Shown here in pieces: positions 12,458-63,471 of a DNA stretch of 64,000 nucleotides. The first letter of the stretch is position 1; each line of letters opens with the position of its first letter. Both the position numbers and the translations under genes were made by a program. The notes under the pieces were generated by a model. It searched no databases. It worked only from the letters and a program-made list of their open reading frames with translations, and had not been told where the DNA came from. This DNA comes from Candidatus Brocadiia bacterium (GTDB lineage Bacteria > Planctomycetota > Brocadiia > CAIUPP01): positions 128,001-192,000 of the forward strand of contig JBEKCB010000004.1 in the NCBI GenBank assembly GCA_050015075.1, in the 5' to 3' direction.

Positions 12458-12639
12458 TTGACCGCGAAAACGCGAAAAACGGAAACGTCAAACGGAATTG
12501 GAACCACAGAGCAATAGCGCGAGCTGGCGAGCGCTGCCTATCGCCACAGATGCGCACAGTTAAGAAACTTCGTATCTGTGCCTATCTGTGTTCATCTGTG
12601 GTTTAAACTTTTCTTTCGCGTTTTCGCGTTTTCGCGGTC
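12458..12639. repeat. Nested inverted-repeat element, copy 1 (carries a 33-bp insertion)
   Basis: Outer arms GACCGCGAAAACGCGAAA / TTTCGCGTTTTCGCGGTC. Inner arms AACCACAGAT-type / ATCTGTGGTT. Confidence 0.9.
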
Positions 12640-12677
12640 CAAGATTACGTTTCTTTTCCTGTGGTGAGGGAGCACGC

Positions 12678-45577: not shown

Positions 45578-45652
45578 TGGAGCCAGAGGTGGGAATCGAA
45601 CCCACAACATCCGCTTTACGAAAGCGGCGCTCTACCATTGAGCCACTCTGGC
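45578..45652 (-). tRNA. tRNA-Thr (CGT)
   Basis: GCCAGAGTGGCTCAATGGTAGAGCGCCGCTTTCGTAAAGCGGATGTTGTGGGTTCGATTCCCACCTCTGGCTCCA. Forms a cloverleaf with encoded CCA. Confidence 0.96.
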
Positions 45653-54887: not shown

Positions 54888-55946
54888 TCAATCCTCTTCG
54901 CGCGCGATCTTGCTGCGGAACCGCGCGTAGCGCGTGTAATCGAGCTGCACGGTCGGCTTCGCGAGAATCTCCTCGACGGTTGGCCCGCGGCCGCGGACCT
55001 CCGCGATCAGGCCGGTGACCGTGAAGACGAACGCGTCGCTGCCCGCGCCCGATCCGTACGAGACCATGAAGATTTTCTGCCCCGGCTTCGCTACGTCGAG
55101 CACTGCGCAGAGCCCGAGCGGCGACGCGCCGCTGTACACGTTGCCGATGCGCGGCGACAGAAGCCCCGCGCGGCATTGCTCCTTCGAGAACCCGAGCAGT
55201 TGCCCCGCGCGGACCGGGAACTTGCCGTTCGGCTGATGGAAGATCGCGTGCGCGAAGTCGCCGACCTTCATGCCGGTCTGTTCGAGCAGCTTCCGCGCCG
55301 CCGTCATCGTGTGATGGAAATAGCCCGGCTCGCCCGTGAAGCGCCCGCCGTGCCGCGGGAACCGCTCCTCCTCGCGGCGCCAGAAGTCGGGCGTGTCCGT
55401 GGTGTAGGCGAGCGACGCGTCCATCGTCGCCACAACGCCTTCGCGCCCGAAGATGAAGGCCGCGGCGCCGGCGGCGGTGGCGAACTCGAGCGGGTCGCCC
55501 GGCGCGCCCTGAGCGGTGTCGGAGCCGATCGCCAGGGCGCACTCCACCGCGCCCGCCTCGACCAGGCGCGAGCACAGGTACATCGCCTCGGTGCCCGCCT
55601 TGCAGGCGAACTCCAAGTCCGCGGTGTGGATCCAGCGGGTCGTCCCGATCGCCTCGGAGACGACGGTGCTGCTGGGCTTCACGGCGTACGGATGCGACTC
55701 GGAGCCGATGTAGATCGCGCCGATCTTTGCCGGATCGGTTGCTCCGCGCCGGATCGCGCGGCGCGCCGCCTCGACCGCCAGCGTGATGCAGTCCTGGTCG
55801 CGCGCGGCGACGGACTTCTCCTCCATGCCGAGTCCCTTGCGATAGATCTCGGCCTCCCATCCCCACGCGCGCGCGACTTCAGAGGTCTTGATGCGATAGC
55901 GCGGGATGTACGCGCCATAGCCCACGATTCCGACCGGGTCCTTCAT
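54888..55946 (-). CDS. HMG-CoA synthase, archaeal type
   Basis: GSESHPYAVKP, DLEFACKAGT, DTPDFWRR, FHQPNGKFP, IGNVYSG, SYGSGAGSD. Confidence 0.93.
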   Translation of the reverse strand: MKDPVGIVGYGAYIPRYRIKTSEVARAWGWEAEIYRKGLGMEEKSVAARDQDCITLAVEAARRAIRRGATDPAKIGAIYIGSESHPYAVKPSSTVVSEAIGTTRWIHTADLEFACKAGTEAMYLCSRLVEAGAVECALAIGSDTAQGAPGDPLEFATAAGAAAFIFGREGVVATMDASLAYTTDTPDFWRREEERFPRHGGRFTGEPGYFHHTMTAARKLLEQTGMKVGDFAHAIFHQPNGKFPVRAGQLLGFSKEQCRAGLLSPRIGNVYSGASPLGLCAVLDVAKPGQKIFMVSYGSGAGSDAFVFTVTGLIAEVRGRGPTVEEILAKPTVQLDYTRYARFRSKIAREED

Positions 55947-55977
55947 CCGGAATTCTCCGAACAAACAACGACCAGCT

Positions 55978-56136
55978 TGACCGCGAAAGCGCGAAAACGC
56001 GAAAACGACAACGGAATACAACTTTGAACCACAGATGAACACAGATAAGCACAGATACGAAATTCTTTATCTGTGAACATCTGAGTCCATCTGTGGTTTA
56101 AATTCTTCTTTCGCGTTTTCGCGCTTTCGCGGTCAA
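55978..56136. repeat. Nested inverted-repeat element, copy 2
   Basis: Perfect 28-bp arms TTGACCGCGAAAGCGCGAAAACGCGAAA. Inner CACAGAT 10-mer arms. Confidence 0.93.
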
Positions 56137-56179
56137 ATAATTTGCGGTTGCCGTTTTTCGTTTCTTCACGGTTCCGCGG

Positions 56180-57040
56180 TTAACGGACCGCGGTCCCGGC
56201 CTCGCCGCCGCACAGTGCCGACTCGACCGTCCCGGCGACCAGGCCCGAAACGATCCGCGCGTCGAGGCCGCGAATCCTCTGCGCGATCTTGTACAACCGC
56301 TCGACCTTCCCGAGCATTCCACCGGTCACGTCCGGCCGGTCCGCGCGCTGCGGGACTGCGGCGCGAAGAGCGCGGCGGATTCCCGTGATGTTCTTCCGGT
56401 CCACGCATCGCACACAGTCCGCTGCGCGCTCGTGGACGGCCGGCGGCGCTGGAGAGAGGCGGCGTGGAGCAGCAAGATACACACCTTCCACGTCGCATGC
56501 AAGTATGATCCGCTCCGGATGCAGCCGGCCGGCCAGAAAATCGAAGAGTTCCTCCGTGCTCAGAATCGTGAAACCGCGGCGCTCATCGAGCACCGCATCG
56601 CCGTGGATCAGCGGAATCTGGCCGTCTTTCAACAGCGCGCGGATGACTCGCAGGTCCCAGCGGCGCACCTTGCCGTCGCGCGCGATCAGCTCCGCGCTGG
56701 GGCTGACGAGGGCCGGACGCAGCCCGCCGCGCGCCAGGGCGTCGAGCACGCGCGCATTCATCTCCAGCACGCCGCGCCGCGTCTCCGCGAACCCGCGCCA
56801 TCCGCCGCCGCCGGCCAGCCCTTCGCGCGTATGGTGCCGCTTCGCCGGGAAATGCGCGAACCCGCCGCCGCCGTGCGCCAGCAGAAGCCGCATCTGAGGA
56901 CGCCGCTCCAGCGCGCGCCCGATTTCGCCCGCCAACCGCTCGACCGCCGCCCGCCGGAACGCCCGCCGCCGCCGCTTGTCGCCCAGCAGCGATCCGCCGA
57001 GCTTCAGGAAGACAAGCGAAGCCGACCCGGATTCCTTCAC
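56180..57040 (-). CDS. Isopentenyl phosphate kinase
   Basis: LKLGGSLLGDK, HGGGGFAH (IPK signature His), HGDAV, DVTGGMLGKV. Located inside the mevalonate cluster. Confidence 0.88.
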   Translation of the reverse strand: MKESGSASLVFLKLGGSLLGDKRRRRAFRRAAVERLAGEIGRALERRPQMRLLLAHGGGGFAHFPAKRHHTREGLAGGGGWRGFAETRRGVLEMNARVLDALARGGLRPALVSPSAELIARDGKVRRWDLRVIRALLKDGQIPLIHGDAVLDERRGFTILSTEELFDFLAGRLHPERIILACDVEGVYLAAPRRLSPAPPAVHERAADCVRCVDRKNITGIRRALRAAVPQRADRPDVTGGMLGKVERLYKIAQRIRGLDARIVSGLVAGTVESALCGGEAGTAVR

Positions 57041-57079
57041 GAACCCGCCTCCATCACTACCGCGAAAACGACGGCATCT

Positions 57080-57258
57080 TTAACCGCGAAAACGCGAAAG
57101 CGCGAAAAACGGAAACGTCAAATGGATTTGGAACCACAGATGGACACAGATGAATGCAGTCAAGAAATTACGTATCTGTGTTCATCTGTGTCCATCTGTG
57201 GTTTAAATTCTTCCGTGTTTTAAATTCTTCTTTCGCGTTTTCGCGTTTTCGCGGTCAA
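57080..57258. repeat. Nested inverted-repeat element, copy 3
   Basis: Same arms and spacers as copies 1, 2, 4 and 5. Confidence 0.93.
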
Positions 57259-57300
57259 ACAATCCGTAGTTGCCGTTTTTCGTTTCTCAGCGGTCCGCGG

Positions 57301-58275
57301 TCAAGCCAGGTGCGCGCCCGGCCCGGCGTGGTCGGTCAGGACCTCACAGCCGGTCTCGCGCGCGATCTCATCGGCGACCCGCACGGCATCCTTTTTGAGC
57401 GTGAGGACGTGGACGTTCGGGCCTGCGTCAATGGTGAAGTACGCCTCGATGCCGCGCTTTCGAAGTCCGTACACGGCGCGGATCGCCTCGAGTGTGCCGG
57501 CGGTCCAATAGATCAGCGGCGGCGTCGAGGTCAGCATCACCGCGTGCATCGAAAGCGCATCCTCCTCGGCGGCTTCGCCCAGGAGCGCCAGGTCGCGGCG
57601 CAGGATGCCCTGTCGCACGCGGCCGGCGCGATCGGGAATCGCCGCCAGGCGACCCGTGAACGCCTCGCTCGTGTGGGCGATCCGGTGCCCTTCCGCGGAA
57701 GAGACCGTCTTCTCCTCGCGCGAGACCAGCGCGATGAGGTCGCACAGTTCCGGCCAGTGCGTTTCCGGCGCGATGGGCTCGGCGAAGGATTCTTCGTGAG
57801 TCGTCCCCGGATGCAGTTCCACGAATCCGCCCGGCACCGAGCGCGCGGCCGATCCGGAGCCGAGCCGCGCGATCCGCGAAAGCTCCGCCGCATCCGCCCG
57901 GATGCCGTACGCCGCCGAGGCCGCCACGGCCAGCGCGGCGAACCCGGAGGCGGATGAGGCGATCCCGCAGCCGGTCGGAAAACTGTTCTGCGAGGTGACC
58001 CGCGCGCTCTCTTTCCGGCCGGCGATCCGCCGGACGCGGTCCAGGAACAGGCCGATCCGGCGCGCGGATTTTTCGCCCGGCGGCGCGCCATCGAGCCGGA
58101 TCTCATCGCGCGAAGCGCTCTCGTCCAGGAGCGCGACCATCGTCGTCGTGACGCACGCGGAAAGCGTCATCGAGATGCTCGGGTTCAGCGGCAGGTTGTC
58201 CGCGCCGGGCCGGTTTCCCCAGTACTTGATGAACGCGATGTTGGCGCCGGCCAGCGCGGTGACGTTCGAAGCCAA
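57301..58275 (-). CDS. mvaD: MvaD-family decarboxylase (probably mevalonate-5-phosphate decarboxylase)
   Basis: ANIAFIKYWG, NPSISMTL, NSFPTGCGIASSASGFAAL, GSGSAARS, TIDAGPNVH. Confidence 0.9.
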   Translation of the reverse strand: MASNVTALAGANIAFIKYWGNRPGADNLPLNPSISMTLSACVTTTMVALLDESASRDEIRLDGAPPGEKSARRIGLFLDRVRRIAGRKESARVTSQNSFPTGCGIASSASGFAALAVAASAAYGIRADAAELSRIARLGSGSAARSVPGGFVELHPGTTHEESFAEPIAPETHWPELCDLIALVSREEKTVSSAEGHRIAHTSEAFTGRLAAIPDRAGRVRQGILRRDLALLGEAAEEDALSMHAVMLTSTPPLIYWTAGTLEAIRAVYGLRKRGIEAYFTIDAGPNVHVLTLKKDAVRVADEIARETGCEVLTDHAGPGAHLA

Positions 58276-58334
58276 GATTCACTCCGGAAAACGAGGAAGC
58301 ATGAATGATTAACGGCGAAGCACTTCTTCATTCA

Positions 58335-59294
58335 TCATTCAAACTTCGGACTATCCCCGAGGCTGGTGGTGATGGTGCTTTCGGCGCCGGCGAGCCGCAG
58401 CTCGGCGGCGATGCGTTCCTCGCCGGCCTCGTCATCCACCAGCGCGATCATCGCGCCGCCCCGGCCCGCGCCGGAGAGCTTCGCCCCGAGCGCGCCTTTC
58501 CGCAACGCGACTTCGACGAGCCGGTCCAGCTCCGGGCTGGAGACGCCGACGTGCCGCAGGATGCTGTGCGAGTGCGTCATGCAGACGCCGAGTTCGGCGG
58601 CCGACCCGCTGCGGATCACCTCGCGCGCGACGCTGGCCATCGAGCCGAGTTCCCAGAAATACGAATCGTACCGCGCCCGGTCCTTGTCGCGCGCCGCGCT
58701 CACGTCCTCGACGACCTGGAGCGTGGGCGATTCGATCCCCGTGTCGCCCACGATAAACCGGAAGCGGTTGGCGCCGACGGCGATTTCCTGCGGCGGCTTG
58801 CCGCGCACGAAATAGACCGGCTCGCCTTGCGCGACGACCGCGCAATCCACGCCGCTGGGGTTGCCGTGGAACTCGCGCTCCGCCTCGATCGCCAGCTCGC
58901 AGACCTGCTCCGTGGCGAGCTTGCGGCCGAGCGCACCGCAGACGCCGCGCACCAGGGCGACGGCGATCGCCGCCCCGCTGCCCATGCCGCGCCGCATCGG
59001 GATCGTCGAGTGCAGCCGGATGCGCATCCCCTGCTTCTGCTCGCCGAAGAGCCCTGCCACCGACTCGGCGAGCCGGTACAGCGGCGCCAGGCGCTCGGAC
59101 GCCTCTTCCGCGCTGTGGACGCGCTCCTTCAACTCGTCCGAGCTCATCTCGATCCCGACGCTCGGCGTCAGTTCGACCTCCGCGCGCGCGCGGACTCCCC
59201 GGAGCGGAATCGCGATGGCCGGATGGCCGTAGACCACCGCATGCTCGCCGATCAATAGGATTTTGCCCGGGGCTTCGCCCGACGCATTCGTCAT
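58335..59294 (-). CDS. mvk: Mevalonate kinase
   Basis: PGKILLIGEHAVVYGHPAIA, PMRRGMGSGAA, HGNPSGVD, GAKLSGAGRGG. Confidence 0.94.
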   Translation of the reverse strand: MTNASGEAPGKILLIGEHAVVYGHPAIAIPLRGVRARAEVELTPSVGIEMSSDELKERVHSAEEASERLAPLYRLAESVAGLFGEQKQGMRIRLHSTIPMRRGMGSGAAIAVALVRGVCGALGRKLATEQVCELAIEAEREFHGNPSGVDCAVVAQGEPVYFVRGKPPQEIAVGANRFRFIVGDTGIESPTLQVVEDVSAARDKDRARYDSYFWELGSMASVAREVIRSGSAAELGVCMTHSHSILRHVGVSSPELDRLVEVALRKGALGAKLSGAGRGGAMIALVDDEAGEERIAAELRLAGAESTITTSLGDSPKFE

Positions 59295-59347
59295 CGAACT
59301 CTCCGTACCGCGAAGACGCGGGACCACGAAACAAAGTCAACGGCAAC

Positions 59348-59534
59348 TTGACCGCGAAAACGCGAAAGCGCGAAAACGGCAACGGACAACGGCGTTTGAA
59401 CCACAGATGTACACAGATACGCACAGATACGAATTCTTTGACTGCGTGCATCTGTGTTCATCTGTGTCCATCTGTGGTTTAAATTCTTCCGTGTTTTAAA
59501 TTCTTCTTTCGCGTTTTCGCGTTTTCGCGGTCAA
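59348..59534. repeat. Nested inverted-repeat element, copy 4 (third degenerate arm pair extends to about 59317-59575)
   Basis: Right half near-identical to copy 3. Inner loop reversed. Confidence 0.93.
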
Positions 59535-59590
59535 ACAATCCGTAGTTGCCGTTTTGGTTTTTTCGCGGTCCGCGGCCCGCGATCTACTCG

Positions 59591-59642
59591 ATTCTATATG
59601 TCCATCAAGACAATTGCAACGCATGCGGCCGGACGCTATGAT
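59591..59642. promoter_or_regulatory. Divergent promoters sharing a palindromic -35 (TTGCAA)
   Basis: TTGCAA at 59614-59619. Plus strand N17-TATGAT, minus strand N17-TAGAAT. Confidence 0.6.
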
Positions 59643-59735
59643 AAGCGGCGTGCGGCGGTGAAATGGAGACCCGATCGAGTCCTCGAGCGCGACCGCCGCC
59701 GCTTCGGGACCAATGCCAGATTCGGAAGCCAGCTT

Positions 59736-61313
59736 ATGCCCAGAGTCCTGGTCGCGGATTCGCTGTCGGATGTCTGCATCGCGATCCTGCGCGATGCCGG
59801 ATTGGACGTGGATGTCAACACCGGCCGGAGCGAGGAGGAACTCATCCGGCTCATTTCCGCCTACGACGCGATGGTGGTCCGCAGCGCGACGAAGGTGACC
59901 GCGCGCATCCTCGAGGCGGCCGACCGCCTGAAGGTGGTGGGCCGCGCGGGCGTCGGCGTGGACAACGTGGACGTGCCGGCGGCGTCGCACAAGGGCGTGG
60001 TGGTGATGAACACGCCGCTGGGGAACATCACCAGCGCCGCGGAGCACGCCGTGGCGATGCTGCTGGCGCTGGCCCGCAATGTCGCGCCCGCGGACGCCTC
60101 GATGAAGCGCGGCGAGTGGGAGAAGAAGAAATTCACCGGCGTGGAACTCGCCGAGAAAACGCTCGGCGTGGTCGGCATGGGCAAGGTCGGCCAGATCGTC
60201 GCGCGCGCCGCGATCGGGCTGGGGATGAGCGTCTGCGCGTACGACCCGTTCCTGCCGGAGCGCCGCGCGAAGGAACTCGGCGTCGAGCTGGTCGAACTCG
60301 ACGCGCTGCTGGAGCGGTCGGACTTCGTCACGATCCACACGCCGCTGACCGACAAGACCCGCGGCCTGATCGGCGCGGCCGCGCTGGCGAAAATGAAACC
60401 CTCCAGCCGCCTGGTCAACTGCGCGCGCGGCGGGATTGTGGACGAGGCGGCGCTCGTCGAGGCGCTCAACCACGGCCGGCTGGCCGGCGCCGCGCTCGAC
60501 GTGTTCGACGCGGAGCCGCTCCCGGCCGACAGCCCGCTGCGCTCGGCGCGGAACATCATCCTCACGCCGCACCTCGGCGCCAGCACCGAAGAGGCGCAGA
60601 TCAAGGTCGCCGAGGCGATCGCGCGCCAGATCGGCGCGTTCTTCAAGGAAGGTAAAATCCAGCACGCGGTCAACCTCAGTGTGACGCTCACGCCGGAACT
60701 GGAGCCGTTCGCGAAGCTTTCCGAGACGCTCGGCCGGCTCCTCTCGCAGATCCTCTCCGGTCCGCCGCAGAGCCTGACCTGCTCGGCGCGCGGCCGCATC
60801 GCTCAGGGCGACACGCACGCGCTGGCGGTCTTCGCCCTGCAGGGCCTGCTCTCGCACTGGCGCGAACAGTCGGTCAACCTCGTCAACGCGCCGCTCGTCG
60901 CCGAGGAGCGCGGCATGGCGGTGACGGAGGAAAAATCGCTCGAATCGCCCGATTTCGCCAGCATGGTCCGGCTCGAGGTCAACGGTCCGCGCGCCGCGCA
61001 TAGCGCCGCCGGCACGGTCTTCGAGGGGCGCGAGCCGCGGATCATCTCCATTGACGGATTCACCGTTGACCTCAAGCCCGAAGGGACCGTGCTCGTGATG
61101 TTCTACCCGGACCGGCCGGGCATGGTCGGCAAGTTCGGCACGATCCTGGGCAACGCGGGGATCAACATCGCCGGGATGGACGTGGGCCGCCGGGAACGGC
61201 GCGGTCGCGCGTGCGTGGCGCTTTCGGTGGACGACCCGGTCCCGCGGCCTGTGCTCGAGCAGATCCGCACCTGCACCGGCCCCGATGGCGAGGCGCACCT
61301 CGTCGAATTGTAG
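59736..61313 (+). CDS. serA: D-3-phosphoglycerate dehydrogenase
   Basis: VRSATKV, GRAGVGVDNVD, NCARGG, TPHLGAST.EAQ, plus ASB and ACT (DRPG) domains. Confidence 0.96.
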   Translation: MPRVLVADSLSDVCIAILRDAGLDVDVNTGRSEEELIRLISAYDAMVVRSATKVTARILEAADRLKVVGRAGVGVDNVDVPAASHKGVVVMNTPLGNITSAAEHAVAMLLALARNVAPADASMKRGEWEKKKFTGVELAEKTLGVVGMGKVGQIVARAAIGLGMSVCAYDPFLPERRAKELGVELVELDALLERSDFVTIHTPLTDKTRGLIGAAALAKMKPSSRLVNCARGGIVDEAALVEALNHGRLAGAALDVFDAEPLPADSPLRSARNIILTPHLGASTEEAQIKVAEAIARQIGAFFKEGKIQHAVNLSVTLTPELEPFAKLSETLGRLLSQILSGPPQSLTCSARGRIAQGDTHALAVFALQGLLSHWREQSVNLVNAPLVAEERGMAVTEEKSLESPDFASMVRLEVNGPRAAHSAAGTVFEGREPRIISIDGFTVDLKPEGTVLVMFYPDRPGMVGKFGTILGNAGINIAGMDVGRRERRGRACVALSVDDPVPRPVLEQIRTCTGPDGEAHLVEL

Positions 61314-61340
61314 ATTGTTCATTCTTTCTGCAATTGTGAG

Positions 61341-61368
61341 TTGACGGAAGCGCCGGCTTCTGTATAAT
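61341..61368 (+). promoter_or_regulatory. sigma70 promoter of the two-component genes
   Basis: TTGACG-N16-TATAAT. Confidence 0.55.
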
Positions 61369-61420
61369 CGCTTGCGTGCGGCGTCGGCGGCCGCTCAGGA
61401 CACGAAGGGAGGAGTCGCGA

Positions 61421-61855
61421 ATGGCCCAGGAAAAGACGATCCTCATCGTGGATGATGACCCGGACATCGTGGAGTCCACGCGCGTGGTGCTGGAGTCGGC
61501 GGGTTACCGAGTGATGAGCGCGTCGAACGGCACCGAGGCGACCGCCCGCATCGAGCGGGAGATCCCGGACCTGATCCTGCTCGACATCATGATGGCCGAA
61601 CCGACCGAGGGCTTCCACCTCGGCTACAAGCTCCGCGAGGACCCCGTCTACGCTCACATCCCGATCATCATCGTCAGCGGCATCAGCGAGAAGACCGGCT
61701 TCGACTTCTCGAAAGAGAAGGAAACCGATTATATCAAGGCGGACGAGTTCCTGGACAAGCCGGTCAGCCCGCAGACGCTCCTGAGCAAGGTCGCCACCCT
61801 CCTGGAGCGGAAGCCGCGCCGCGCCGCGTCCGACGGGCAAGCCCGCGCGAAATGA
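61421..61855 (+). CDS. Single-domain response regulator
   Basis: ILIVDDD, LLDIMM, KP. GGAGGAG RBS. Confidence 0.92.
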   Translation: MAQEKTILIVDDDPDIVESTRVVLESAGYRVMSASNGTEATARIEREIPDLILLDIMMAEPTEGFHLGYKLREDPVYAHIPIIIVSGISEKTGFDFSKEKETDYIKADEFLDKPVSPQTLLSKVATLLERKPRRAASDGQARAK

Positions 61856-61864
61856 GGCCGCCCC

Positions 61865-63223
61865 GTGCCGGCGCAGCGAATGGCGGAGACGGCGTTGCTG
61901 GCGCGATGCCACTGGCTGCTGAAAGCCCGGTGGGTGTTTGTGGCGGCGCTCGCCGGAGCGCTGGCGTTGAGCGACGGCGGGCTGAACTGGCAACGGCACA
62001 CGGCGCCGCTGTGGGCCGTCGCGGCGTTCATCGCGCTCTACAACGCGGGGTTCACGGCGGTCGAGCGACGGCCGAAGTTCTGCGTCATCGGCGAAAGGCG
62101 AGGCGTCGGAGAGCGCATCGCGGCCTTCGTCTTCGTTCAGATGGCGCTCGACGCGATAGCGCTGACGGTGCTGCTGGGCTATTCGGGCGGCATCGGGAAC
62201 CCGATTGCGTTCTTTTACATTTTTCACGTCGCGCTCGCCGGCATCCTGTTGAGCCGGCGGTTGTGCTACGCGCTGGCGTCGCTGGCGACCGCGCTGGTCG
62301 TGGCAGTCGCAATCGCGCCGCTGAATTACGGCTTCCTGAGCGGCGTCATCCAGGATGCCGGAGTGCGCCGGCCGGAGTGGCCGTTCGTGGTCGCGTACCT
62401 TGCGGCGTTCGCCTGCACGATGTACGTGACCGCCTACGTGACCACGTCGGTCGCGGCGGATCTGCGGAAGCGCGAGTTGGAGCTGGTGAGCACCGCCGAG
62501 GCGCTCCGCCAGACCAGCCAGAAACTGGCGGAGCTGGAGGAACGCAAGTCGCTGTTCATGATGACGGCGGCGCATCAACTCAAGAGTCCGCTGGCCGCCG
62601 TCGTGAGCCTCTTGCAGGCCGCCGGGACCGCGGGCGTTTCGCCGGAGAAGGAAAAGGAGATGATCGCGCGCGCCGTGGAGCGCGCGAACGGAGCCGTGCG
62701 GCAGGTACAGGAATTGCTGGACCTCGCCCGGCTGCGCTCGCTGGACCCGGAGCGCCAGGCGCGGAAGGTGCTGGATTTCCGCGAAGTGCTCGACGGTGTG
62801 CGCGCGACGATTGCCGCCCAGGCGGAAGGGAAGCAGGTGAAGATCGAGTTCCAGGCCCCCGACCGCGCCGCGTGGGTCGAAGGGAACCGCGATGACCTGT
62901 TCGTCGCGGTGCTGAACCTGGTGGAGAACGGCGTGAAGTATACCGAAAGCGGCGGAACGGTCAAGGCCGCGTTGAGCCCCGCGGACGGCGGATGGCAACT
63001 GGTCGTCTCCGACACCGGCATCGGCATCCCGCAGGCGGCGCTGCCGAACCTGTTCAAGGAGTTCTTCCGCGCCGGCAACGCGATCCGGCGGAAGATCGAA
63101 GGGACCGGACTGGGCCTTTCCATCGTCGAGCAGATCGTCCGAATGCACGGCGGCCGCATCCGGGCGGAGTCGGAAGAGAACAAAGGATCCACTTTCACCG
63201 TTTGGCTGCCGCGCGCGCCGTGA
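61865..63223 (+). CDS. Membrane sensor histidine kinase
   Basis: About six TM helices, AHQLKSPL, NLVENGVKY, DTGIGI, GTGLGL. Confidence 0.93.
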   Translation: MPAQRMAETALLARCHWLLKARWVFVAALAGALALSDGGLNWQRHTAPLWAVAAFIALYNAGFTAVERRPKFCVIGERRGVGERIAAFVFVQMALDAIALTVLLGYSGGIGNPIAFFYIFHVALAGILLSRRLCYALASLATALVVAVAIAPLNYGFLSGVIQDAGVRRPEWPFVVAYLAAFACTMYVTAYVTTSVAADLRKRELELVSTAEALRQTSQKLAELEERKSLFMMTAAHQLKSPLAAVVSLLQAAGTAGVSPEKEKEMIARAVERANGAVRQVQELLDLARLRSLDPERQARKVLDFREVLDGVRATIAAQAEGKQVKIEFQAPDRAAWVEGNRDDLFVAVLNLVENGVKYTESGGTVKAALSPADGGWQLVVSDTGIGIPQAALPNLFKEFFRAGNAIRRKIEGTGLGLSIVEQIVRMHGGRIRAESEENKGSTFTVWLPRAP

Positions 63224-63247
63224 ACCGCGGCAAAAAGAAAACTGAGG

Positions 63248-63436
63248 ACCGCGAAAACGCGAAAACGCAAAAAAACGCTAACGTTAAAACGAGTTTGGAA
63301 CCACAGATGGACACAGATGAACACAGATGCACGCAGTTAAAAAATTCGTATCTGTGTTCATCTGTGTCCATCTGTGGTTTAGATTCTTCCGTGGTTTAGA
63401 TTTTTCTTTTTTCGCGTTTTCGCGCTTTCGCGGTCA
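63248..63436. repeat. Nested inverted-repeat element, copy 5
   Basis: Same architecture as the other four copies. Confidence 0.92.
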
Positions 63437-63471
63437 GACGGACTTTCCGTTGGGTTGGAAGGAGATAAGCG

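Follow-up and report, generated by a model that had tools for sequence, protein, structure and literature searches.

The 64,000-nucleotide stretch of Candidatus Brocadiia bacterium DNA studied here (contig JBEKCB010000004.1, positions 128,001 to 192,000; hereafter the window) contains five intergenic layered palindromes, each ∼ 180–270 nt long. We consider it probable (about 0.72) that they are cargo-less composites of a selfish hairpin family whose loops have been inverted repeatedly, by arm-to-arm recombination or template switching together with conversion between copies. The comparison with a congeneric genome carries most weight: the loop is opposite in 6 of 13 comparable orthologous hairpins. 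An initial annotation, made from the letters of the window, had proposed that the loop core was inverted or reshuffled between its arms; the orthologous loops support this, the feature is real and the interpretation is supported in outline. The genome that holds the window is denoted G000 (4.64 Mb, 64.7% GC, 66 contigs); it was compared with genomes of the same genus (G001, 140 contigs), of another genus in the same family (G003) and of the same class (G035).

The five copies, with the two loop orientations denoted A and B, are arranged as follows:

12458..12640, no strand, copy 1: outer CGCGAAAR arms at ∼ 12460–12481 and 12614–12640, with the inner CACAGAT arms within
12511..12544, + strand, GC-rich mini-hairpin of 34 nt in copy 1, after the first unit of the left inner arm
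12552..12573, + strand, loop of copy 1: orientation A, the ..CTTCGT end adjoining the right arm
55978..56136, no strand, copy 2: loop at 56057–56068, shortened to 12 nt, orientation B
57080..57258, no strand, copy 3: loop at 57152–57173, orientation A
59348..59534, no strand, copy 4: loop at 59429–59449, orientation B; an outermost third layer reaches to ∼ 59310–59580
63247..63437, no strand, copy 5: loop at 63329–63349, orientation A

All five were found where the initial annotation had placed them (the start of copy 5 being read as 63247), and its count of five palindromes stands; the outer limits it gave do not, as the palindromes reach further out. The outer stem consists of two to three tandem CGCGAAAR units (arms ∼ 24–27 nt) and the inner stem of two to three tandem CACAGATNNN units (arms ∼ 27 nt). 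The loops are 12–22 nt long and without an open reading frame (ORF). In every copy the left spacer is G-rich, with ACGG-type motifs and a GGAAC end, and the right spacer runs from GTTTAAA into a T-rich stretch; reading each copy bears out the identical outer polarity described before. Against an expectation of 0.22, the window has 10 occurrences of the 9-mer CCACAGATG, which form five facing pairs; none of 100 shuffles reached 10.

The loop ends in ..TTCGT or ..TACGT beside the right arm in copies 1, 3 and 5. That of copy 4 begins with ACGAATTC.. beside the left arm, which is the reverse complement of the loop end in the other three. The reported reversal of the loop in copy 4 and, in shortened form, in copy 2 was confirmed by sequence. 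The orientation given for copy 1 was also right, the motif GCAGTY assigned to its loop was not: copy 1 has ACAGTT there. Copies 3 and 4 do combine near-identical right halves with opposite loops, as had been noticed, and the likeness includes a duplicated GTTTAAATTCTTCCGTG segment and flank outside the element.

The region around copy 4 (59300–59580) is predicted to fold into one three-layer hairpin with a dG of −87.4 kcal/mol (z = −10.7, none of 200 shuffles as good). Termination of transcription was rejected as the main explanation. No inner or outer stem qualifies as an intrinsic terminator (GC-rich stem, short loop, T run), and a scan gave 8 terminator-like sites against 6.8 expected, none of them an element stem. 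Copies 2 and 4 each have a small terminator-like site on the − strand at their left edge. An Rfam search of the whole window at the gathering thresholds found no family on the elements and no rRNA; its sole match was a tRNA gene at 45581–45652 (− strand, 73 bits).

Syntenic element sites in G001 have flanks ∼ 92–96% identical to those in G000. Loops were aligned by a script both directly and as reverse complements; among the 11 pairs scored, 5 were flipped, 4 were the same and 2 were ambiguous, and some pairs were judged by eye:

copy 1, copy 3, copy 4, C3:104047 and C18:59345: flipped, scripted alignment
copy 5, C2:111433, C2:90816 and C40:15365: same orientation, scripted alignment
copy 2: same orientation in G001 by eye, scripted verdict ambiguous
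C2:33472: same loop orientation by eye, with the mini-hairpin on the mirror-image arm in G001
C13:110870: flipped in G001 by eye

Flipped loops are 0.65–0.86 identical to the reverse complement of their orthologue, versus 0.42–0.55 when aligned directly. For copy 1 and its orthologue (G001 L023) the two values are 0.77 and 0.55, and for copy 3, whose orthologue has orientation B, 0.65 and 0.48. The orthologue of copy 4 has orientation A; that of copy 5 has kept its orientation, with a direct identity of 0.90. At the copy 1 site, everything enclosed by the outer arms is turned over in G001; the inversion took in the spacers as well as the inner hairpin, which places its breakpoints in the outer arms. 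In copy 4, as judged by eye, the G001 core turned over, including one degenerate arm unit on each side, matches G000 but for a few substitutions. The mirror-image mini-hairpin at C2:33472 would require two nested inversions. Loop orientation is no marker of subfamilies: changes occur in place and affect more than one layer. Two fixed subfamilies, which the initial annotation had named as an alternative, are ruled out by the orientation changes at orthologous loci. Every layer of a short bacterial palindrome can have its contents turned over, quickly enough that orientation is randomised between genomes of one genus; the alignment, annotation and assembly of intergenic DNA have to reckon with this, and so does the reading of such sites as regulatory.

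It might be argued that there is no true inversion, and that each flip is a replacement by conversion or re-insertion from copies aligned in the opposite sense. Copy 3 is the best case for this. The near-identical right halves of copies 3 and 4 both contain a duplicated spacer segment, present in G001 at the copy 4 orthologue only, and the loop of copy 3 bears the GCAGTCAA signature of the copy 4 lineage; the simplest reading of this difference would be conversion between copies 3 and 4, which lie 2.2 kb apart. The replacement of entire hairpin families at orthologous sites, and metagenome contigs that link the same arms to many loops, also favour replacement. However, the flipped loops of C3:104047, C18:59345, copy 1 and copy 4 appear closest to the reverse complement of their own orthologue (0.55–0.86), and the copy 4 match runs through the degenerate arm unit on each side once the G001 core is turned over. 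A match that continues beyond the loop is what in-place inversion predicts, and as an account of every flip we regard replacement as improbable.

An assembly artefact, in which a de Bruijn assembler chose the loop orientation arbitrarily between inverted repeats, is less credible still. Misassembly had been flagged as a possibility by the initial annotation, both genomes are metagenome-type assemblies (of 66 and 140 contigs) and k = 31 contigs break within elements, at 57112 and 57250. Yet the exact inverted stretches are at most ∼ 27 nt, shorter than the usual final k and than the reads, so that orientation is set by spanning k-mers. For copy 4, a different sample supplies a 129-nt contig (X2 record 5, 59350–59478) that runs from the left outer arm through the loop into the right inner arm and reproduces orientation B with 0 differences; copy 2 is covered by two contigs, X2 record 1 and X6 record 16, again with 0 differences. 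Flipped loops bear substitutions of their own, and the outer spacers of copy 1 flip coherently, unlike a graph error. With independent contigs reproducing copies 4 and 2, an artefact is very unlikely.

The palindromes are modular. Gathering the copies throughout G000, a step that had been recommended from the window, gave 22 CACAGAT hairpins. About 10 of them are the same composite with homologous spacers, which argues that the composite spread as a unit; the remainder are without CGCGAAA arms or lie inside CACCAAG-type arms. G000 also has three outer-only CGCGAAA hairpins and many inner-only ones. Outer-only, inner-only and composite forms together support the earlier description of a modular, non-autonomous element. 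The 34-nt mini-hairpin is a third-level module: all 5 of its genome copies stand after the first arm unit (CCACAGA or CCACGGA) and before CACAGAT, and it is missing at the G001 orthologues of 3 of these 5 sites.

Counterparts in G001 were assessed for 20 of the 22 CACAGAT sites, with the following outcome:

13 of 22 sites: comparable inner hairpin in G001
C21:8090, C22:78377 and C18:61383 (3 of 22 sites): another hairpin family in G001, of ATGA-rich heptamers
C15:78721: empty in G001, 11 nt versus 165 nt
C13:25399: outer-only CGCGAAA hairpin in G001, composite in G000
C1:44689: half-element, conserved in G001
C17:90365: flanks absent from G001

At C13:110870 the outer arm is kept in G001 and the inner arms consist of CGCCGAT, CGCGGAT and CGCAGAT units around a loop that is homologous but flipped. 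G003 has no hairpin at three sites of the mevalonate gene cluster in which copies 2 to 4 lie. Together with C15:78721 in G001, these are the empty sites in relatives that the initial annotation had proposed to look for. The swaps of hairpin family suggest either selection for some hairpin at these sites or hairpin-targeted insertion.

A CGCCGAT-type hairpin beside a half CACAGAT hairpin is kept in both G000 (C1:44560–44800) and G001 (L165:640–760); in G000 only, a second kind of GC-rich mini-hairpin (∼ 33 nt) lies within the CGCCGAT arm. At C40:15120–15340 of G000, ∼ 35 nt of flank and the first CACAGAT unit are directly duplicated around a CGCCGAT hairpin which G001 is without. The duplication could be a trace of new hairpins being added beside old ones.

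A census of G000, in which arrays from a tandem-repeat scan were paired with their own reverse complements, gave ∼ 183 hairpins with arms of tandem 6–10-nt units. They fall into more than 20 unit families (examples are C1:43627–43740 and C2:39981–40065), with a mean arm length per family of ∼ 24–41 nt. The commonest family has the form (TCGTCC)n, a ∼ 20-nt loop and (CGAGGA)n, with 57 copies, followed by a GACGATG heptamer family (19 copies) and a family of the 9-mer CACGGAATA (14 copies).

A cargo gene was found between CACAGAT arms in the congeneric genome. On contig C84 of G001, a 127-codon ORF lies between an arm of three units and an arm of four. The ORF matches TIGR04256 (GxxExxY) with 143 bits and PF13366 with 136 bits; the corresponding site in G000 is empty (44 nt versus 558 nt). 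A GxxExxY ORF lies between CACAGAT arms, in either orientation, at 4 of 80 loci fetched from other lineages (L039, L071, L093 and L101). The link between CACAGAT repeats and GxxExxY genes that the initial annotation had cited from recall holds at these loci, and its proposal to search for copies with an ORF in the loop was fruitful at the same five places. All five TIGR04256 genes of G000 stand between inverted arms of tandem units, with a different unit for each gene (CACGGATTN, CGCCGATGAA, CACGGAAGA, CGCAGAGNN and CGCCAAGAN). For the outer CGCGAAAR arms, the only case seen at a GxxExxY gene is a related one with CGCGAAT units (L196).

The association extends well beyond these genomes. Matches to TIGR04256 exceed the family cut-off in 32 of 41 relatives, mostly 2–12 per genome and many of them broken, and about 23 of 30 GxxExxY loci fetched from relatives have inverted arms of at least 20 nt made of CRCNRAN-type units. 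Arm unit types agree with the clades of a protein tree, GAT-type units standing apart from GAG/AAG-type units. The exact three-unit CACAGAT pattern occurs in at least 124 stretches of one-genome-per-species contigs, where ∼ 0.3 would be expected by chance (21 fixed bases, both strands of 596 Gb, equal base frequencies), and 57 of the 80 CACAGAT loci fetched have facing arms. Record titles among the matches listed name Acidobacteriota, Planctomycetota, Verrucomicrobiota, Bacteroidota, Cyanobacteria, Chloroflexota, NC10, spirochaetes and Proteobacteria. Repeat-holding bins of the peat contigs have a summed word depth ∼ 10–40 times that of the flanks. Peat metagenome contigs of runs X2, X3, X6 and X7, matched to window positions 55900–59600, join CACAGAT arms to many loops (12 distinct inserts shown). 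Such a variety of loops on the same arms indicates a large, community-wide pool of hairpins.

The function of the GxxExxY family is listed as unknown in PMC3424549. Thirty sequences share the invariant residues G31, E34, D73, E83, K85, Q97, N114 and F115. A sequence search of solved structures (PDB) with the GxxExxY protein gave 0 matches; an AlphaFold model (pLDDT 95.5) has Cas4, lambda exonuclease and Hjc as its best matches (TM ∼ 0.5), and the protein is predicted to be a minimal PD-(D/E)XK nuclease fold. A second cargo family is present as well. G000 has three S23p-family (TIGR02436) four-helix-bundle genes, one of which (C1:168107) lies between heptamer inverted arms and another (C13:29599) has hairpin sequence of tandem 9-mer units to its left and right; around the third, arms are not obvious. 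Literature searches, conducted mostly without subscription journals, returned no description of tandem-unit hairpins around GxxExxY genes. The hairpins offer a testable origin for a very common and unexplained gene family.

The cargo raises the question of whether an enzyme encoded by the element does the flipping. On this view, cleavage of the hairpin or cruciform at the tandem units by the GxxExxY nuclease would be followed by repair or rejoining that turns the loop over or exchanges it, a side effect of the way the elements home into palindromes. The cargo is conserved, with an invariant D73-E83-K85 triad and the predicted fold of Cas4, lambda exonuclease or Hjc; its gene is physically tied to these arms across lineages, and arm type tracks protein clade. 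A role in flipping would be attractive because of the nesting at palindrome centres, the reuse of sites and the high flip rate: nesting and the replacement of hairpin families fit hairpin targeting, and orientation is near-random (6/13) at only ∼ 6% flank divergence, a high rate for 27-bp arms. Against this, G000 has no GxxExxY gene in CACAGAT or CGCGAAA arms, nuclease activity is predicted from sequence and a model for a family whose function is listed as unknown (PMC3424549), and the hairpin loops of chloroplasts invert without a dedicated enzyme (PMC6005162). On balance we think an enzymatic cause unlikely, if more plausible than replacement of every loop by conversion.

We therefore return to inversion by recombination or template switching as the preferred explanation, which can be set out as follows. 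A CACAGAT-type hairpin lies nested in the centre of a CGCGAAA-type hairpin, and in the mevalonate cluster both layers lie inside a third, weaker palindromic layer. The two arm types probably belong to one superfamily of selfish hairpins, with a stem of ∼ 24–30 bp made of about three tandem 8–10-nt CRCNRAN... units. Full-length members carry a small GxxExxY gene in the loop, and some other tandem-unit hairpins an S23p-like four-helix-bundle protein; we infer that the GxxExxY protein mobilises the elements. The composite would have spread as a unit to ∼ 10 intergenic sites, mainly junctions of co-directional genes. Because every layer consists of near-perfect inverted repeats, the segment between the arms is inverted in place repeatedly. 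The most likely molecular route, by analogy with the hairpin loops of chloroplasts, would be intramolecular recombination or replication template switching in the extruded hairpin. Conversion between paralogous copies may in addition paste a loop in either orientation, since palindromic arms let the donor pair either way.

Several observations weigh against this scheme. The flipped loops are 0.65–0.86 identical to their orthologues, as against ∼ 0.94 for the flanks, and the loop pair at C9:48482 is unalignable in either orientation. Conversion from other copies may explain some of the flips, for example that of copy 3. Some flips could also be population polymorphisms or graph choices of the assembler, because both genomes consist of many contigs. 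The contig data show no locus with both loop orientations within a population; no strand-changing joint is found among 15 of 36 contig joints listed, and contigs drop rare variants. No CACAGAT-linked GxxExxY gene was found in G000. The agreement between arm type and protein clade is expected from co-inheritance, and does not prove recognition. Finally, neither a target-site duplication nor a clean boundary is seen at two empty sites (C15:78721, and C84 of G001 versus C11), where the surrounding intergenic DNA has diverged.

The closest published relative is the intervening sequence (IVS) of 23S rRNA with its S23p ORF. In Coxiella the IVS has been described as selfish: its terminal stem measures 28 bp, its loop holds an S23p ORF and RNase III excises it; tandem GACAGAT heptamers, two to three copies in a number that varies between strains, stand at the stem/ORF border, and the small ORF of IVSs, which are known for example in Coxiella and Leptospira, is often decaying (PMC4990558). 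The palindromes described here share the ∼ 28-bp inverted-repeat stem (inner arms of ∼ 27 nt, outer arms of ∼ 24–27 nt), the short tandem units at the stem, GACAGAT being one base off the CACAGAT core, and the cargo-in-loop plan, and the S23p family is also present in G000. They differ in location, since IVSs occur within 23S rRNA (helix 45 or 25) and RNase III removes them from the RNA, whereas the copies here lie between protein-coding genes. They differ in cargo too: the window copies have no S23p ORF, and the CACAGAT-linked gene encodes a protein of predicted PD-(D/E)XK nuclease fold. The copies here are mostly gene-less and nested, and the passages on IVSs in that source mention neither nesting nor loop inversion.

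We define a class of GxxExxY-associated hairpins, in which about three tandem CRCNRAN-type units flank a loop. The palindromes of the window have this structure, and for the CACAGAT arms the same arms surround a GxxExxY gene elsewhere. The GxxExxY family is thereby tied to the old question of how rRNA intervening sequences originate and move. IVS-like selfish hairpins and hairpin-loop inversion are known kinds of phenomena, and the wider class may be the more important result. More speculatively, the palindromes could be the gene-less form of undescribed, pan-bacterial 'hairpin-homing' mobile elements, of which the 23S rRNA IVSs would be a special case that landed in rRNA. The loop-borne GxxExxY protein (or the S23p protein in sister families) would recognise the tandem units of the stem, and the element would insert into, or convert, the centres of existing palindromes. 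This would account for the onion-like nesting, the swaps of hairpin family at one site and the near-random loop orientation; we put it forward as a tentative idea, somewhat short of even odds.

Inversion of hairpin loops has a precedent in the 'minute inversions' of non-coding chloroplast DNA (Kelchner & Wendel 1996, cited in PMC6005162), which are attributed to a single intramolecular recombination and no dedicated enzyme. There, as here, loops between short inverted repeats are turned over between close relatives, often enough in chloroplasts to be homoplasious (PMC6005162). The chloroplast stems, as that source describes them, are single and static and may be as short as 4 bp, whereas those of the window are multicopy, nested and made of ∼ 27 bp of tandem units; here more than one layer inverts, on a bacterial chromosome with turnover of elements.

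REP, BIME and REPIN sequences with their RAYT (Y1) transposases are likewise short, intergenic, palindromic, multicopy, non-autonomous and linked to a repeat-flanked single-copy gene (PMC3333891, PMC3116915). They differ from the elements here, which have arms of tandem 8–10-mers and are linked to a 127-aa protein of predicted nuclease fold, not to an HUH transposase. A REP/RAYT origin was rejected, as the two Y1_Tnp (PF01797) genes of G000 are flanked by unrelated inverted repeats. These IS200/RAYT-like transposase genes, at C26:67017–67346 and C44:10217–10519, each lie in their own inverted repeats of ∼ 25 nt. Classical MITEs share the non-autonomous state, terminal inverted repeats, intergenic dispersal and presence/absence between relatives (PMC3184786), but here the whole element is a hairpin of independent layers instead of short terminal repeats around unrelated DNA. 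This reading too was rejected: no DDE-transposase parent was found, the only gene between these arms being that for the 127-aa protein of PD-(D/E)XK-type fold. The TAACTGA heptamer repeats of Beggiatoaceae, cyanobacteria and Bacteroidetes are short intergenic tandem units whose patchy spread across phyla suggests horizontal transfer; as described in PMC4679880, they are direct repeats upstream of start codons, with one inverted case, and their arrays are not hairpins with cargo.

Scanned neighbour genes of the five copies are metabolic or encode a histidine kinase, and no site-specific recombinase is among them. Invertons are invertible promoter segments that need such a recombinase nearby, and the terminal hairpins of parvoviruses and poxviruses occur in flip and flop orientations that arise from hairpin-primed replication at the ends of linear replicons. 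Both resemble the palindromes in having a segment bounded by inverted repeats in two orientations, and differ in that neither linear-replicon ends nor a recombinase with a promoter is seen here.

DNA of the window recurs in 24 sequencing runs, all of them peat or wetland metagenomes. Three of the five copies (1, 2 and 3) lie at junctions of co-directional annotated genes. Copy 1 stands between an argD-like class-III aminotransferase gene and an ornithine carbamoyltransferase gene (the argD–argF site). On the − strand, copy 2 separates an isopentenyl-phosphate-kinase-like (AA_kinase) gene from an HMG-CoA synthase-like gene, and copy 3 a diphosphomevalonate decarboxylase gene from an AA_kinase gene. 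Copy 4 occupies the divergent region between the next + strand ORF and a GHMP (mevalonate) kinase gene, upstream of the latter; copy 5 has a histidine kinase gene on one side and an unannotated + strand ORF on the other. Given their location within mevalonate and arginine operons, the elements may influence mRNA processing or stability.

The mevalonate cluster (54888–59294, − strand) comprises HMG-CoA synthase-like, AA_kinase family, diphosphomevalonate decarboxylase and GHMP kinase genes, with hairpins at two of its three internal junctions and in the upstream region. In G003 the decarboxylase–kinase junction of the same cluster (C11:37215–37340; L217/L219) is a direct tandem array of GACGACAGAC-like units; there is nothing at the matching junction in G000. 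At locus L012 of G035 (C125:1500–4481) a ∼ 1.4-kb gene has a CACAGAT-type hairpin upstream and two tandem, longer-looped CACAGAT-like hairpins downstream.

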